A stretch of 64,000 bases of DNA from Escherichia coli. Its GTDB lineage: Bacteria; Pseudomonadota; Gammaproteobacteria; Enterobacterales; Enterobacteriaceae. This document shows positions 2,801 through 60,596 of the stretch, piece by piece. The notes beneath the pieces are model-generated. The model was given only the letters and a program-made list of their open reading frames with translations, made no database searches and was not told the DNA's origin. The stretch lies in assembly GCF_016903815.1 (NCBI RefSeq), contig NZ_CP069973.1. One strand, 5' to 3'. Numbering within the stretch: position 1 is the first letter of the stretch; each line of letters starts with the position of its first letter. The position numbers were made by a program, and so were the translations under genes.

Positions 2801-5800
2801 TCATGACTGATTAAAGCGAAACAGCGGTAACAGGAAACGTTGCGACTGTTCAACGATGGCCTCCATTGTCTCTGGTGTTAATTGCCGCCAGAGCCGTTGA
2901 TACCAGATATCATCACCTTCGCCACGCACCATCATGTTGCCTTCGTAAGCCTGAAGGAATTTCGTACGGGCTTTTTGCAACGTGGAATCGTCATCCAGCA
3001 TGGCATCGTTTTGCGCGTCATAACAGGTTTTTAGCCACGCGCCGCCACTTTCAGGTAACACCAGCAATGGCGCGGACATTCCTTCACGATACCCCTCAAT
3101 CAGTTGTGAGAGGTAATGCAAAGCCTGTTCGGCTGCAAGCGGCGGAAAACGCCACTCACCGTCTTTGCGTAGAAAAAGGCGACTTTCGCCATTACCACCG
3201 CTGGCACAGTAGACAAGGTGTTCCAGCCAAAGTTGCATTCCCTGCGCCACACTTAATAAAGAGGGACGCCAGCGCAACAGGCCATCCGGCTGCACCTGCG
3301 GCAACCAGCCAGTTATCTGCACACCGTTGCAGGCGAGATCAATTTCCATACTCTGCCCCGGCTGGCGACAGGCAATGACTCTGTCGGCAAGCTGCTGCAT
3401 CTCCTGGCACTGTGTTTCCCAGAAAATTTCACCAAAAGCGCCATACGGTAAATCCCCTGCCGCCCGGAAGCGGCGGAACAAGCGTTCGGCATCATCCTGC
3501 TCAACCAGTGCATTCAATAACTGCTGATTGATTTGATAACGGCTAAGTCCTTCCAGAATAAATGGCTCGGTGTCTGGGATTTCGCTGTCTTCAGTACGGA
3601 AGTTCACCTGCAAACGCATCTGGAAGAACGCCCGCACCGGATGTGCCCAGAATCGTTGTAGCGTTTCCAGCGGCACGGTTTCCGGTAAGGTAAACGGCAG
3701 CGGCTGAACAAATTCAGAATGTGCTTTACCAGCCTGGCTGGCCGCAGGTAGCCATTCACGAGCATAGCTTTGTCGTTCGCCTGGCTGGTAGTTTTGTGGA
3801 TCAAACGGCATCCGGGTATGGAGGCAAGTAAGATGCGCTTTTACCCTTGCCTCGCTTTCATCACAGTTGAGCGCTTCATCGCCCGGTAGATAATGACTTT
3901 GCCCGATGTAGTCGATCAGTTCCTGCACCAGTACCGACGGGAAACGTTCACTGTTATCCTGAATGGAACGCCCGATATAGCTGATATAGAGTTTTTGCTG
4001 CGCGGAAATTAACGCTTCCAGGAACAGGTAGCGGTCGTCATCGCGACGGCTACGGTCGCCACGCTTCGGTTTCTGGCTCATCAGGTCAAAGCCCAATGGC
4101 GCAAGCTGACGTGGATAAACGCCGTCGTTCATTCCCAGCAGGCAAACCACTTTGAACGGAATTGAACGCATTGGCATCAGAGTACAAATGTTAACCGGTC
4201 CGGCGAGAAAACGCTGGCTGATACGTTCTTGATCCAGACGCTGCGCCAGTTCATCACGCAATAGTGACAGCGGCACCGCGTCGCCATACTGCGCACCTAA
4301 ACCTTCGGCGATAATCGCCTGCCATTGTTGTTCGATCAGCGTCATCGCCGCTTCGGTTTCCGCATCCGGCAGGAAGAAGGCGTTGAGCATATCGCGACAA
4401 ACCGGCAACCACTCTTCTAGCGGACGCTCCTGTGCCAGCCCGCGACGCCAGATGTTTAGCTGCATTAGCAGTGAAGCCAGATGCCCCACCAGTTCTGCAA
4501 TTAAGCCGCTCGATTCATCATAAGGTAGAACCGATTGCCACTCGCCCTGCGCGCTCTCCATCGCGTAGCCCAGCAACATACGCGTCAGGCCAAATCGCCA
4601 GGTGTGTTGTCCGGTGGCGGGGAGTTCCAGCTCGCGAACGTTGTCGTCATCTATCCCCCAACGAATGCCGGATTCGTTGACCCACTGGCGTAAATAACGC
4701 AGCCCTTCTTCGGTGATGTCAAACCGCGCCGCCAGCACCGGCACATCCAGCAGCGCCAGCACATCCTCTGACACAAAGCGACTGTCAGGCAGTGATAACA
4801 GGCTGATAAACGCTTCCAGTACCGGATGTGACTGCCGCGCACGACGGTCGGAAATGGCGTAAGGCAGGTAACGATCCGCAGGTGCGCTACCAAACACTGC
4901 CTGAATAAACGGACTGTAGCTGTCGATATCAGCCACCATCACGATGATGTCGCGCGGAGTAAGTGTCGCGTCTTCCTCCAGCATCGCCAGCAAGCGATCG
5001 TGTAAAACTTCAACTTCACGCTGCGGGCTATGGCAAACGTGGAAGGTGATACTGCTATCCAGTGGATCAAGCGGGCGTTTGTTATCGCTACGGGAAAACT
5101 CTTCGATGTTCACACCCGCAACGGCGCGGTTTTCCAGTTCCAGAATGTCAGACTGAATGTTATGCAGCAGGTTATCTGGCGTGACATCGACAAAGGCGTC
5201 CAGCTCCTGGCTGCTCTCCAGGTCAGAAAGGAGATAAATGTAGTCGCGCCCAAGCTTACCCCATGAAGCCAGCAGCGGGTTGCCGACATCCTGTTCACCA
5301 TCGCTGTTAAAGAGCTGCCCGGCATTTTCGCTATCACGAAATAGCGGCAATTCGCGATCTTCAAAACTGTGTCGACGCTGACGGGTCAGCAGTTTCGCCA
5401 GATAAGCAGGATCTTTAATATCGCCCCAGTAATAACGGCAGGGGTTGGTAAACAGGAGATGGATTTCAATATGTTTACCCAGCGCCTGTAGCGCCTGGAG
5501 ATAAACAGGCGGTAACGCGGAAATACCGCATATAAAGACGCGCGAAGGTAACCCCGGCGGGCAGGTCGTCGCGGACTCCAGCGTTTCGATAAAGCGCTGA
5601 TAGAGATTGGCGCGGTGCCAACGCGGTTGTCCGAGTTCATGGGTATATTCCACCAGCGCCTTCCACAACGGCGCTTGCCAGGCCTGTGCCTCTCCCAGCC
5701 CTTCAACCAAATGTCCTGTTTCCCAGTGTGCCAGCCAGTCCGGACGATAGACCAGATACTGGTCAAACAGGTCCGCCGCTTTTGAGGAAAGCTGGAACAG

Positions 5801-6169
5801 TTTTCGCTTGTCGCTATCGTCAGTCAGATAATGCCGCAACAGGGTAAAGTCTTCGCGCTCCAGCAATTGCGGCAGCAGAGTCATCAGTTTCCAGCTCATG
5901 CTCTGTTTGTTAAAGGCACTCTCTTTGGGGATCTCCGGTAACACCCGGACGAACATATCCCAGATAAAGCTCGCTGGCAGCGGAAAATCAATGTTTGCCG
6001 CAATACCAAACTTTTGCGACAGGGTCATTTGCAGCCACTGCGCCATACCGGTACTTTGCACCAGAATCATCTCTGGTTCGAAAGGATCGTCCAGCCGTTC
6101 GCGTTCGACAATAAACTCCATCAACGCTTCCAGCACGTCCAGACGATTGGAATGGTAGACCCTTAACAT
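2801..6169 (-). CDS. recC: Exodeoxyribonuclease V gamma subunit RecC
   Basis: 1122-aa ORF; N-terminus MLRVYHSNRLDVLEALMEFIVERERLDDPFEPEMILVQSTGMAQWLQ and the length match RecC. Confidence 0.93.
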   Translation of the reverse strand: MLRVYHSNRLDVLEALMEFIVERERLDDPFEPEMILVQSTGMAQWLQMTLSQKFGIAANIDFPLPASFIWDMFVRVLPEIPKESAFNKQSMSWKLMTLLPQLLEREDFTLLRHYLTDDSDKRKLFQLSSKAADLFDQYLVYRPDWLAHWETGHLVEGLGEAQAWQAPLWKALVEYTHELGQPRWHRANLYQRFIETLESATTCPPGLPSRVFICGISALPPVYLQALQALGKHIEIHLLFTNPCRYYWGDIKDPAYLAKLLTRQRRHSFEDRELPLFRDSENAGQLFNSDGEQDVGNPLLASWGKLGRDYIYLLSDLESSQELDAFVDVTPDNLLHNIQSDILELENRAVAGVNIEEFSRSDNKRPLDPLDSSITFHVCHSPQREVEVLHDRLLAMLEEDATLTPRDIIVMVADIDSYSPFIQAVFGSAPADRYLPYAISDRRARQSHPVLEAFISLLSLPDSRFVSEDVLALLDVPVLAARFDITEEGLRYLRQWVNESGIRWGIDDDNVRELELPATGQHTWRFGLTRMLLGYAMESAQGEWQSVLPYDESSGLIAELVGHLASLLMQLNIWRRGLAQERPLEEWLPVCRDMLNAFFLPDAETEAAMTLIEQQWQAIIAEGLGAQYGDAVPLSLLRDELAQRLDQERISQRFLAGPVNICTLMPMRSIPFKVVCLLGMNDGVYPRQLAPLGFDLMSQKPKRGDRSRRDDDRYLFLEALISAQQKLYISYIGRSIQDNSERFPSVLVQELIDYIGQSHYLPGDEALNCDESEARVKAHLTCLHTRMPFDPQNYQPGERQSYAREWLPAASQAGKAHSEFVQPLPFTLPETVPLETLQRFWAHPVRAFFQMRLQVNFRTEDSEIPDTEPFILEGLSRYQINQQLLNALVEQDDAERLFRRFRAAGDLPYGAFGEIFWETQCQEMQQLADRVIACRQPGQSMEIDLACNGVQITGWLPQVQPDGLLRWRPSLLSVAQGMQLWLEHLVYCASGGNGESRLFLRKDGEWRFPPLAAEQALHYLSQLIEGYREGMSAPLLVLPESGGAWLKTCYDAQNDAMLDDDSTLQKARTKFLQAYEGNMMVRGEGDDIWYQRLWRQLTPETMEAIVEQSQRFLLPLFRFNQS

Positions 6170-6181
6170 AGCGGCTCCTGA

Positions 6182-6505
6182 CTACTGACGATTCGGGCAA
6201 TGCAGGCGGGTCATCTCGCCTTCTCTGCCCCCGGGTGAAACTAGCGTAACGCTGATGCTGACACATCCCGCCTGCGATGTCTGCATTCGGTTGACCTGCC
6301 AGTTGGCAGGTGGCGAAATCGCGCGCAGTTGCGTTTGCTGCCAACCATGCCGCCAGAGCTGTTGGTACTGGTTTCTGCTGGCGAGACTGTTCATTAATGT
6401 TCGCTGGATACCCGATAACGCAGTGACAATCATCACCATCAGCACCATCGCAACCATTACCTCCGGCAGGCTAAAGCCTTGTTGATTCTTCAGGGAGGCT
6501 GACAT
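6182..6505 (-). CDS. ppdC: Prepilin-type (pseudopilin-like) protein PpdC
   Basis: ORF 6182..6529; the likely start is the internal Met ([24 protein letters not shown]), which gives 107 aa and the prepilin N-methylation motif GFSLPE followed by a hydrophobic helix. Confidence 0.75.
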
Positions 6506-6897
6506 AATGCCCCCTCTTTCAGCGGACAAAAATCGCTCCAGCCGCGTGGCGAAAAAACAATTTTTCCATCAATGACTTCGCCTGTTCGCCACAACGAAAC
6601 GCCTTCATAACCGGCAATCAATAAGGCTTCATTATCTGCCAGTAAACGCAAACAAACCTGGGCATCGGTTCCAGCGTACTGCGAGCACTGAACTGCTGGC
6701 TGCGTCTGCCAGGAGTGCATTTTTCCCCACGCCAGCGCCGACTGAACGATGGCCTGGCGGCGCAATGACTGACTTTCCATGCTCACGCGAGAGGCAAAAC
6801 TGCGATCCTGCTGACTCATTCCTTGCAATAGCAAGCTACCCAAAACCAGCAGCATCAGGACCAGAGCCAGTGACGAAACACCTTTTTCGCGGTTCAC
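6490..6897 (-). CDS. ygdB: Uncharacterised protein YgdB of the ppd operon
   Basis: 135-aa ORF with a hydrophobic N-terminus ([24 protein letters not shown]), overlapping ppdB and ppdC as in the K-12 ppdAB-ygdB-ppdC arrangement. Confidence 0.75.
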
Positions 6898-7457
6898 AGG
6901 TTGAATCCTGTCACGCTATAGCTGGCATCCACCACGGTTTGCGGTTCAGACTTACTGGCAGCACGCATATTAACCGTCAACACCGGCGAGAAGCCGCTGA
7001 CATCCTGACGTACGACCTGAAAAGTGTCGATAATGATGGCATCCGGATTAGTGACTTTATCCCAGCCCTTACCTTCACAGGATGTCGCACCGCGTAGCGT
7101 TTCCAGCACATGCTCCTTCAGACGAAATCCAATCTGGTCGGACTCTTTTACCGGTTCGCGATCCCAGATACCGTTACTGTTCGCATCCCACTGCACAATG
7201 ATACAGTCACCCTGTCCGACAATTTCCAGCCCTTCGCCGGTACAGCTGCCATGACAATAACCCGCCCTCTGGAGATGCTTCGCGACGGTAAATACCCGCA
7301 GCCAGATTTCATCTTCCAGCGCCAGCTTACGGGTGCCCGTTAAACTTTCACGCTGTAACGCAGGCAGAAAGCGTGCCGCTCCCAGCAACAATACGCTACT
7401 GATCGCCATAGCAATCAACACTTCCAGCAGAGAAAAACCTTGCTCTTTTACAGGCAT
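6894..7457 (-). CDS. ppdB: Prepilin-type protein PpdB
   Basis: Internal start [27 protein letters not shown] within the 267-aa track ORF gives 187 aa. The upstream extension overlaps ppdA in another frame and is rejected. Confidence 0.78.
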
Positions 7458-7918
7458 CCTTCTGTTTCTCCTTGCTGACAAAGCCGGAGTCTTCCCCACG
7501 GCGAAACCACCAGCCACCACTCGCCCGTTGAGTTTTTGAAGCGAATATGCCCTGCCCATGCGGTATTGCGCAGGCCAAAGAAAGCAAGCGAAGGTGTCAG
7601 GTCGCTCATTTCGACTTCGGGCCAGCGTGGCACAAAGACCAATGGTGAACTGCCATGACAGGTATTGGCCCCAGCAGCGGAACTCACAAGGCACCATAAC
7701 GTCCCCTCCCTGATAACGCTGATACTGTGGTCGCGGTTATGCCAGTTGGCATCTTCACGTAAATAGAGCAAATAGTCCCGCGCCTGGCTGGCGGTTTGCC
7801 ATAGCCGTTGCGACTGCTGCCAGTATTGCCAGCCATAGAGTCCACTTGCGCTTAGCATGACCAAAATCAGCATCGCGACCAGCGTTTCAATCAGCGTATA
7901 ACCACGTTGTGTTTTCAT
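7448..7918 (-). CDS. ppdA: Prepilin-type protein PpdA
   Basis: 156-aa [33 protein letters not shown] is a type IV prepilin leader with the (G)YTLIE motif. Confidence 0.8.
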
Positions 7919-8053
7919 GCCGGCAGTATGGAGCGAGGAGAAAAAAAGACGAGGGCCAGTTTCTATTTCTTCGGCGCATCTTCCGGACTATTTACGCCGT
8001 TGCAGGACGTTGCAAAATTTCGGGAAGGCGTCTCGAAGAATTTAACGGAGGGT

Positions 8054-8085
8054 AAAAAAAACCGACGCACACTGGCGTCGGCTCT
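8054..8085 (-). terminator. Rho-independent terminator downstream of thyA
   Basis: Hairpin ccgacgcacactggcgtcgg preceded on the + strand by an A-run, which is a T-run on the minus-strand transcript, just 3' of the thyA stop. Confidence 0.6.
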
Positions 8086-8102
8086 GGCAGGATGTTTCGT
8101 AA

Positions 8103-8897
8103 TTAGATAGCCACCGGCGCTTTAATGCCCGGATGTGGATCGTAGCCTTCAATCTCAAAGTCTTCGAAACGGTAGTCGAAGATGGATTCGGGTTTACGTT
8201 TGATAATCAACTTCGGCAGCGGACGCGGTTCGCGGCTTAATTGCAGATGAGTTTGATCCATATGATTGCTGTACAGGTGCGTGTCGCCCCCCGTCCAGAC
8301 AAAATCGCCCACTTCCAGATCACACTGCTGCGCCATCATATGCACCAGTAACGCGTAGCTGGCAATGTTAAACGGCAGGCCGAGGAAAACGTCACAGGAG
8401 CGCTGATAAAGCTGGCAAGAGAGTTTGCCGTCTGCCACATAGAACTGGAAGAACGCATGGCACGGTGCCAGCGCCATTTTATCCAGTTCGCCTACGTTCC
8501 ACGCTGAAACAATAATGCGGCGCGAATCCGGGTCGTTTTTCAGCTGGTTCAGTACCGTAGTGATCTGGTCAATATGACGACCATCCGGCGTTGGCCAGGC
8601 GCGCCACTGTTTACCATACACTGGCCCGAGGTCGCCGTTTTCATCGGCCCATTCGTCCCAGATGGTGACATTGTTTTCGTGTAGATAAGCAATGTTAGTG
8701 TCGCCCTGCAGAAACCACAGCAGTTCATGGATGATGGAACGCAGGTGGCAACGTTTAGTTGTCACCAGCGGGAATCCATCCTGCAGGTTAAAACGCATCT
8801 GATGACCAAAAATGGAAAGCGTTCCGGTTCCGGTACGGTCGTTTTTCTGTGTGCCTTCGTCGAGCACTTTTTGCATCAGTTCTAAATACTGTTTCAT
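8103..8897 (-). CDS. thyA: Thymidylate synthase
   Basis: 264-aa [71 protein letters not shown] is the ThyA signature. Confidence 0.95.
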
Positions 8898-19843: not shown

Positions 19844-19931
19844 AAAAAAAACCTGCGCATCCGCGCAGGTTGGTGCAAGAGACAGGGTACGAAGAGCGTA
19901 CCGAATAATCTCACCAATCAATACCTCTGGG
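19844..19931 (-). ncRNA. omrA: OmrA small RNA (RygA)
   Basis: The minus-strand sequence CCCAGAGGTATTGATTGGTGAGATTATTCGGTACGCTCTTCGTACCCTGTCTCTTGCACCAACCTGCGCGGATGCGCAGG followed by a U-run matches OmrA, with a terminator hairpin, in the aas-galR intergenic region. Confidence 0.85.
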
Positions 19932-20045
19932 ATCTTGATTGTGGTCTGCACGACGACTCTTCGCCAGCGAGAAAACGCAAAGGAATGAAGGGAAATGCAA
20001 CGAGGTGTGTAAATTGTCGGTTACTGTTACAGATTGATGACCGGC

Positions 20046-20128
20046 AAAAAAAAACCTGCGCATCTGCGCAGGCTGGTGTAATTCATGTGCTCAACCCGAA
20101 GTTGACTTCACCTATCAATACCTCTGGG
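20046..20128 (-). ncRNA. omrB: OmrB small RNA (RygB)
   Basis: The minus-strand sequence CCCAGAGGTATTGATAGGTGAAGTCAACTTCGGGTTGAGCACATGAATTACACCAGCCTGCGCAGATGCGCAGG followed by a U-run shares its 5' and 3' ends with OmrA. Confidence 0.85.
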
Positions 20129-60412: not shown

Positions 60413-60596
60413 ATTTCTCTGAGATGTTCGCAAGCGGGCCAGTCCCCTGAGCCGATATTTCATACCACAAGAATGTGGCGCTCCGCGGTTGGTGAGCATG
60501 CTCGGTCCGTCCGAGAAGCCTTAAAACTGCGACGACACATTCACCTTGAACCAAGGGTTCAAGGGTTACAGCCTGCGGCGGCATCTCGGAGATTCC
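60413..60596 (+). ncRNA. ssrS: 6S RNA (regulator of sigma70 RNA polymerase)
   Basis: ATTTCTCTGAGATGTTCGCAAGCGGGCCAGTCCCCTGAGCCGATATTTCATACCACAAGAATGTGGCGCTCCGCGGTTGGTGAGCATGCTCGG... matches 6S RNA, downstream of zapA and upstream of fau. A -10-like TAGAGT lies just upstream. Confidence 0.88.

Follow-up and report, generated by a model that had tools for sequence, protein, structure and literature searches.

Four short genes that resemble prepilin genes lie directly upstream of recC in Escherichia coli, and the locus raises the question of what the four products do and whether their position next to a gene for RecBCD carries any meaning. We analysed it in a window of 64,000 nucleotides, by which we mean the whole stretch of E. 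coli DNA under study (contig NZ_CP069973.1 of assembly GCF_016903815.1). An initial annotation of this DNA had described a cryptic ppdA-ppdB-ygdB-ppdC operon, and the features of the locus are listed in Table 1.

Table 1. Features of the ppd locus and its surroundings, in window coordinates.
Feature	Position	Strand	Description
recC (RecBCD gamma subunit)	2801-6169	minus	own AGGAG ribosome-binding site
ppdC	6182-6505	minus	ATG...TAG, 107 aa; small minor pilin, presumed GspI/PilV class
ygdB	6490-6897	minus	GTG...TGA, 135 aa; DUF2509, putative atypical minor pilin without E+5, GspK/PilX position
ppdB	6894-7457	minus	ATG...TGA, 187 aa; GspJ/PilW-class minor pilin
ppdA	7448-7918	minus	ATG...TAA, 156 aa; probable GspH/FimU/FimT-class minor pilin
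Conserved promoter block	7987-8037	minus	footprint alignment of 5 enterobacterial loci
Candidate CRP-S-like site B	8026-8011	minus	TTCCCGAAATTTTGCA; overlaps site A
Candidate CRP-S-like site A	8037-8022	minus	TTCGAGACGCCTTCCC
thyA intrinsic terminator	8054-8085	minus	GC stem with a run of 8 U behind it; -16.6 kcal/mol on RNA folding (z = -3.0)

An open reading frame check returned exactly the coordinates that the initial annotation had assigned to ppdA, ppdB, ygdB and ppdC, with no internal stop in any of them. The same check, the existing annotation and equivalog models also agreed with its identification of the genes and with its view of them as an operon, and the four genes are the known E. 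coli ppdA-ppdB-ygdB-ppdC operon, which has been described previously. The RefSeq annotation of identical DNA has the same four CDSs, in the minus-strand order ptrA, recC, ppdC, ygdB, ppdB, ppdA, thyA, lgt, ptsP, rppH, and the gene order in K-12 MG1655 is identical to that of the window. The overlaps between neighbouring genes likewise proved to be those noted before: ppdA and ppdB share 10 nt (7448-7457, ATGCCTGTAA), ppdB and ygdB share 4 nt (6894-6897, GTGA) and ygdB and ppdC share 16 nt (6490-6505). The start of ygdB lies within the stop of ppdB and translational coupling is therefore likely. Shine-Dalgarno sequences are good for ppdB and ppdC and weak for ygdB, and no recognisable Shine-Dalgarno sequence was found upstream of the ppdA start.

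Of 5426 complete E. coli genomes, 5425 contain positions 6000-8200 of the window with an identity of at least 95%, and several strains are 100% identical. Further along, positions 27500-52000 are 100% identical to E. coli strain 222 (NZ_CP020516.1), to which positions 15000-64000 are exactly equal, and E. coli strain 7/2 is identical to the window through position 27999, where an indel difference follows. The GC content of the ppd region (0.52-0.54) is like that of its flanks, and on this ground, together with conserved synteny, we rejected horizontal acquisition of the operon.

The leaders of the four proteins were compared with the models for class III signal peptides (PF07963 / TIGR02532). 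All four leaders are short and basic and end in Gly at position -1 (MKTQRG, MPVKEQG, MNREKG and one of 10 residues). The Pfam N_methyl model matched PpdA (E = 3.3e-7, 30 bits), PpdB (E = 6e-9, 35.4 bits) and PpdC (E = 9e-8, 31.8 bits), in each case above the curated cut-off of 21.2 bits, and these three proteins have the canonical prepilin motif of Gly followed by F or Y at +1 and Glu at +5 (Y/E in PpdA, F/E in PpdB and PpdC). When orthologues from five other loci, with identities down to 24-29%, were aligned, the motif was invariant in all three: G6, (Y/F)7, L9 and E11 in the six PpdA orthologues, G7, F8, S9, L10 and E12 in PpdB, and G10, S12, L13 and E15 in PpdC. Residues R117, R143 and R145 of PpdA were also invariant in the six orthologues. 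At the level of families, NCBIfam equivalogs matched all four proteins with E values from 1e-64 to 4e-98 (NF007800 for PpdA at 1e-74 and NF007660 for PpdC at 1e-64), and PpdC additionally matched PF12528 (T2SSppdC) with E = 4.5e-30.

YgdB departs from this pattern. It matched neither N_methyl nor TIGR02532, and DUF2509 was its sole Pfam match. The leader Gly and a hydrophobic helix are both there, but +1 is occupied by V and Glu is absent from +5. When 1.84 billion representative proteins were searched with a profile, only 155 relatives of YgdB came up at E of 0.001 or less. In an alignment of the 81 full-length members the leader Gly is present in 79, the +1 residue is S in 20 and F in 19 (together about half), and four conserved cysteines occur in no fewer than 80. 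An acidic residue between +1 and +8 was found in none of the 81. A leader that lacks E5 is characteristic of the GspK/PilX position in minor-pilin sets. The claim of the initial annotation that all four proteins have type IV prepilin leaders thus stands for PpdA, PpdB and PpdC, whereas YgdB keeps the Gly but is atypical in lacking E+5; pilin-family models gave the same division, with N_methyl recognising three proteins and YgdB known to Pfam only as DUF2509 even though equivalogs exist for all four.

Structural models speak to the position of YgdB. An AlphaFold2 model built on the 81-sequence alignment has a pLDDT of 94.8 and comprises an antiparallel sheet of five strands and a single long helix that spans residues 6-60, a pilin fold that is nearest to GspK and GspI. 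The protein is shorter than GspK (135 aa and about 325 aa, respectively) and has no large alpha-domain, and a Foldseek search of the PDB with the model returned no significant match. The PpdB model matches GspJ/XcpW/EpsJ, and in both members modelled here a long alpha-helix at the N-terminus packs against an antiparallel beta-sheet. Pfam and RefSeq label YgdB/DUF2509 as of 'unknown function' despite this confident pilin fold.

Assigning the four proteins to the H, I, J and K positions one by one is a separate matter. A sequence search of the PDB with all four found no solved structure, the best hit being a marginal one between PpdB and TTHA1219 (E = 0.06). In comparisons of the four profiles with GspG-K and PpdD by hhalign the matches were mostly confined to the N-terminal helix, and the H/I/J/K assignment therefore cannot rest on sequence. 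What the quartet does display is four contiguous, co-oriented pilin-like genes of which one lacks E+5. On the evidence of its model PpdB is firmly predicted to be the J-type (GspJ/PilW) member, and the one-to-one mapping is firm for PpdB as J only; for the other three proteins we infer the positions. PpdA has been modelled as FimT/ComN-like in a 2025 paper, which suggests that Arg143, Arg145 and a loop motif of Arg and Asn might contact DNA (PMC12616744).

Because fold and leader class are common to GspH-K and the Ppd proteins, the four could in principle be T2SS pseudopilins that serve Gsp-dependent protein secretion and not a pilus. The name of PF12528 as a T2SS family points the same way, as does the statement, in a passage of Karuppiah 2016 (PMC5131608) citing Cisneros 2012, that PpdAB-YgdB-PpdC prime PulG fibre assembly in a pulHIJK mutant and so can substitute for PulHIJK. 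However, against the GspH/I/J/K equivalog models the four Ppd proteins scored 13.9-19.8 bits at best, where the cut-offs are 44-130, and the Gsp systems have sets of their own: the T2SS-beta of strain 7/2 is complete and includes a GspG, H, I, J and K of its own, and the K-12 T2SS-alpha has its own GspK. The distribution of the genes also differs. The ppd locus is core (5425/5426 genomes), whereas the two prepilin peptidase genes, each of which the examined genomes carry inside a T2SS cluster, are accessory: megablast found gspO in 3145 of the 5426 and pppA in 3618. Finally, Sxy places the ppd operon under common control with ppdD and hof. The presence of H-K sets elsewhere and the accessory peptidase genes weaken the secretion reading, which we consider very improbable.

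The partner genes that a pilus would need are found outside the window. As the initial annotation had remarked, the window itself, judged by the annotation of strains 222 and 7/2, holds no pilus or secretion ATPase or secretin among the genes annotated in its 64 kb. Elsewhere in the genome ppdD-hofB-hofC (5423/5426 complete E. coli genomes) and hofMNOPQ (5425/5426) are nearly universal, and strain 7/2 carries ppdD-hofB(gspE)-hofC, the PilT-like yggR and pppA. In published work a cloned assembly set that builds PpdD pili with ppdD in E. coli includes the four genes, as minor pilins, a 2021 preprint with an EHEC assembly plasmid draws the minor pilins in its assembly scheme, and H. influenzae comNOPQ, the orthologues of the ppd genes, are required for DNA uptake. 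We conclude that the ppd operon very probably supplies the chromosomal type IVa (PpdD/HCP) pilus, a competence-type fibre for DNA uptake, with its four core minor pilins.

The following sequence of steps would account for this role. Each Ppd protein would insert in the inner membrane via its N-terminal hydrophobic helix and, YgdB presumably included, would be cleaved after the conserved Gly by PppA or GspO, prepilin peptidases whose genes lie elsewhere. By analogy with GspH-I-J-K, PpdB (J-type), PpdC (presumed I-type) and YgdB (K-position) may form a tip or priming complex, which PpdA (H/FimU/FimT-type) may join to the major pilin PpdD; this arrangement is supported by the published cross-complementation. 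The priming complex would then nucleate PpdD polymerisation by a machinery supplied from two other loci, namely the HofB ATPase, the HofC platform, HofMNOP and the HofQ secretin. Translation of the four Ppd proteins would be coupled through the overlaps between stop and start codons. The operon is silent in the laboratory, and its published induction by cAMP-CRP together with Sxy (TfoX) would act on a weak promoter of the CRP-S type in the interval from thyA to ppdA. Transcripts would probably run on into recC because no terminator follows ppdC.

With respect to the promoter, the intrinsic terminator of thyA recurs in the loci of Citrobacter and other enterobacteria, and it insulates the ppd promoter region, shielding it from upstream transcription. 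A terminator scan of 5900-8300 missed this element, which RNA folding confirmed. Downstream of it lies the conserved block, with the pattern TTC..G...T..TG.A.C....TG.AA......AA.T over 8037-7987 and a -10-like AAATA. A search for consensus CRP-S sites (TGCGA-N6-TCGCA with at most two mismatches) found none in the thyA-ppdA spacer, and counts across the window were fewer than the shuffle mean; a sigma-70 promoter scan of 5900-8300 likewise found no coding-strand promoter upstream of ppdA. Sites A and B each have 4 mismatches in the 10 core positions. In both, position 6 conforms to a published rule for the half-sites of enterobacterial CRP-S sites, which allows C or G there and never T. They resemble the best by-eye CRP-S-like matches upstream of ppdD (TTCGTAACGCCTCGCA) and hofM (TTCCCATTTAGTTTCA), two promoters at which CRP binding has been shown (Cameron and Redfield 2006), and the ppdA and ppdD promoters have CTGCAACG in common, followed by AAATA. 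From the letters of this region we infer that sites A and B are candidate positions for the CRP-S site upstream of ppdA.

Regulation of this kind is in line with the literature. According to a passage in a later paper that cites Sinha 2009 and Jaskolska & Gerdes 2015, the ppd operon is induced by Sxy, ppdA most strongly, and Sxy- and CRP-dependent induction has been shown for ppdD and yrfD (Cameron and Redfield 2006). Published work also reports that Sxy induction did not lead to transformation of E. coli under the conditions tested, that natural transformation of E. coli is very rare and that piliation from the native loci has not been seen in laboratory culture. The type IVa minor-pilin role, the Sxy regulation and the synteny with recC are all already published, and the description of the operon by the initial annotation as poorly understood is overstated, given that the priming role, the membership of the PpdD-pilus gene set, induction by Sxy and the recC synteny have been reported.

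That the operon is unexpressed in laboratory culture, that its promoter is very weak, that ppdA has no Shine-Dalgarno sequence and that E. coli is barely transformable might all be expected of a decaying, functionless relic, whose adjacency to recC would then be a historical accident. Other observations count against this reading. The four open reading frames are intact and full-length in comparison with K-12, the locus is present in 5425/5426 genomes, the leader motifs, the four Cys and several Arg are conserved in orthologues down to 24-30% identity, and the gene order is kept in Citrobacter and other enterobacteria, the four-gene cassette being retained even where recC is not adjacent. Moreover, published work has shown the ppd genes to be functional when expressed. 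We regard decay as a most unlikely explanation, because these core genes are intact and visibly constrained, and we retain the reading of the operon as a minor-pilin set.

This leaves the meaning of the neighbouring recC. The tight, co-oriented coupling upstream of recC that had been described earlier was borne out, since recC starts 12 nt past the ppdC stop. No terminator-like hairpin was found between ppdC and recC in the scan of 5900-8300. The order rppH-ptsP-lgt-thyA-ppdA-ppdB-ygdB-ppdC-recC-ptrA is exact in four other enterobacterial loci, two of them from Citrobacter and two with a more divergent YgdB (44% and 30% identity), and the gap between ppdC and recC in these loci is 12-31 nt. 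In a transcriptome study ppdAB-ygdB-ppdC-recC is listed as a single polycistronic operon. A foursome of 'prepilin peptidase dependent' genes beside recC has been described in Enterobacteriaceae and Pasteurellaceae (Cameron and Redfield 2006), and on account of this conserved position next to recC the ppd operon has been called orthologous to H. influenzae comNOPQ.

A functional reading of this linkage is that Sxy-driven read-through from ppdC co-regulates pilus priming and RecBCD dosage, and with it the fate of incoming DNA. The short gap with no terminator-like hairpin, the 12-31 nt spacing in the four other enterobacterial loci, the like arrangement in Pasteurellaceae and the listing of the five genes as one polycistronic operon are each consistent with it. 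Yet recC needs constitutive low expression and the ppd promoter is silent, so that an internal promoter must exist. In addition, a distant genome of 3.0 Mb (GCA_036326945.1) carries the cassette of four genes in unchanged order, adjoining neither thyA nor recC; the cassette is kept there without recC, and we therefore regard the cassette as the conserved unit and the linkage to recC as a lineage trait. Taking both sides together, we offer co-regulation through read-through as a tentative and rather doubtful proposal.

Doubtful to a greater degree is the joint proposition that PpdA, with its invariant R117, R143 and R145, is a FimT/ComN-like DNA-binding tip pilin and that Sxy-driven read-through crosses the ppdC-recC junction, both parts of which have been hinted at in print (PMC12616744); we think it unlikely that the two hold together. 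If they did, the signal that produces the DNA-uptake fibre would also alter the dosage of RecC and RecBCD, and thereby whether incoming DNA is degraded or recombined. DNA binding by PpdA and the regulatory meaning of the recC linkage both bear on why E. coli retains a DNA-uptake machine that is complete yet silent.

Comparison with named systems places the operon as follows. The ppdAB-ygdB-ppdC genes of E. coli K-12 and EHEC (b2826-b2823) are the same locus, of which the window carries a strain-level allele: PpdA is identical to that of K-12, there are 4 differing residues in PpdB, 5 in YgdB and 2 in PpdC, and the thyA-ppdA spacer with the promoter region is identical but for one T in the thyA terminator. 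The T2SS sets GspH-GspI-GspJ-GspK (ETEC 3CI0, XcpVWX and EpsIJ) belong to families different from Ppd, to judge from the equivalog scores below cut-off, and unlike the genes for these minor pseudopilins the ppd genes are unlinked to an ATPase or secretin and would serve a pilus rather than secretion. In comparison with FimU-PilV-PilW-PilX of P. aeruginosa and FimT of Legionella, the E. coli operon has no PilY1 or PilE gene, and the Ppd proteins are smaller and can be aligned over the N-terminal helix only. The closest parallel in arrangement is H. influenzae comNOPQ (HI0938-HI0941; pulG-HI0941), which likewise consists of four small genes directly upstream of, and co-oriented with, recC and which, like the ppd operon, is regulated by Sxy and CRP-S. 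BLAST found no link between the two operons (Cameron and Redfield 2006), and ComN, the FimT-like minor pilin that is the counterpart of PpdA, has a very low identity to it, about 18% (PMC12616744). H. influenzae transforms very readily and possesses an uptake signal sequence, whereas neither is true of E. coli.

The structural loci of the type IV pilus belong to the E. coli core genome, being present in more than 99.9% of the 5426 complete genomes compared, whereas the two prepilin peptidase genes, for which the K-12 loci L009 2544-3221 and L010 2544-3353 were used, are accessory. By megablast, gspO was found in 3145 of these genomes and pppA in 3618.

Upstream of ppdA, the promoter carries a direct repeat of TGCAAC with a spacing of 10 bp (window 7998-8015). 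A CTGCAACG...AAATA element is also common to the ppdA promoter and that of the K-12 major pilin gene ppdD (L004 about 4655-4668, minus strand). This shared element could belong to the core promoter or serve as the binding site of an unknown factor. No recognisable Shine-Dalgarno sequence was seen in the stretch upstream of ppdA (window 7919-7945, ctccatactgccggcATG), although ppdB and ppdC each have one. This is consistent with a published report that ppdA could be expressed only after its ribosome-binding site was redesigned. It can be seen in the table below that the small RNAs matched in the window form the expected set; Rfam gave no match inside window 6182-8102.

Small RNA features of the window
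Feature	Position (window)	Source
OmrA and OmrB	19844-20128	Rfam
tRNA-Gly	33863-33933	Rfam
6S RNA	60413-60596	Rfam
Sib antitoxin RNA adjoining ibsC	61245-61395	Rfam

Proteins of 228-237 aa that combine the prepilin leader family N_methyl with DUF2509 and T2SSppdC, the YgdB and PpdC families, are rare in the database (P0003, P0018, P0034 and P0039). These are YgdB-PpdC fusions, and a frameshift in the 16-nt ygdB/ppdC overlap (window 6490-6505), or a sequencing error, would give proteins of such a length.

Elsewhere in the window, at 31280-35600, yqeG is followed by a hypothetical gene, a partial IS3 transposase, a truncated ygeQ, tRNA-Gly, actS, IS1A and then directly by uacT. Going by the K-12 map, the yqeG-uacT interval should hold the ETT2-remnant genes and the entire xdh...ygfT purine-catabolism cluster; both are missing here. 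Only 150 of the 5426 genomes covered 80% or more of window 27500-52000 in one piece.

A ppdA-ppdB-ygdB-ppdC-like cassette is also kept in a distant 3.0-Mb genome (L017 4984-6781; GCA_036326945.1, CP133962.1). Neither thyA nor recC was found near this cassette, which is flanked on one side by a gene for an EpmA-like tRNA-synthetase paralogue and on the other by a convergent DEAD-box helicase gene.
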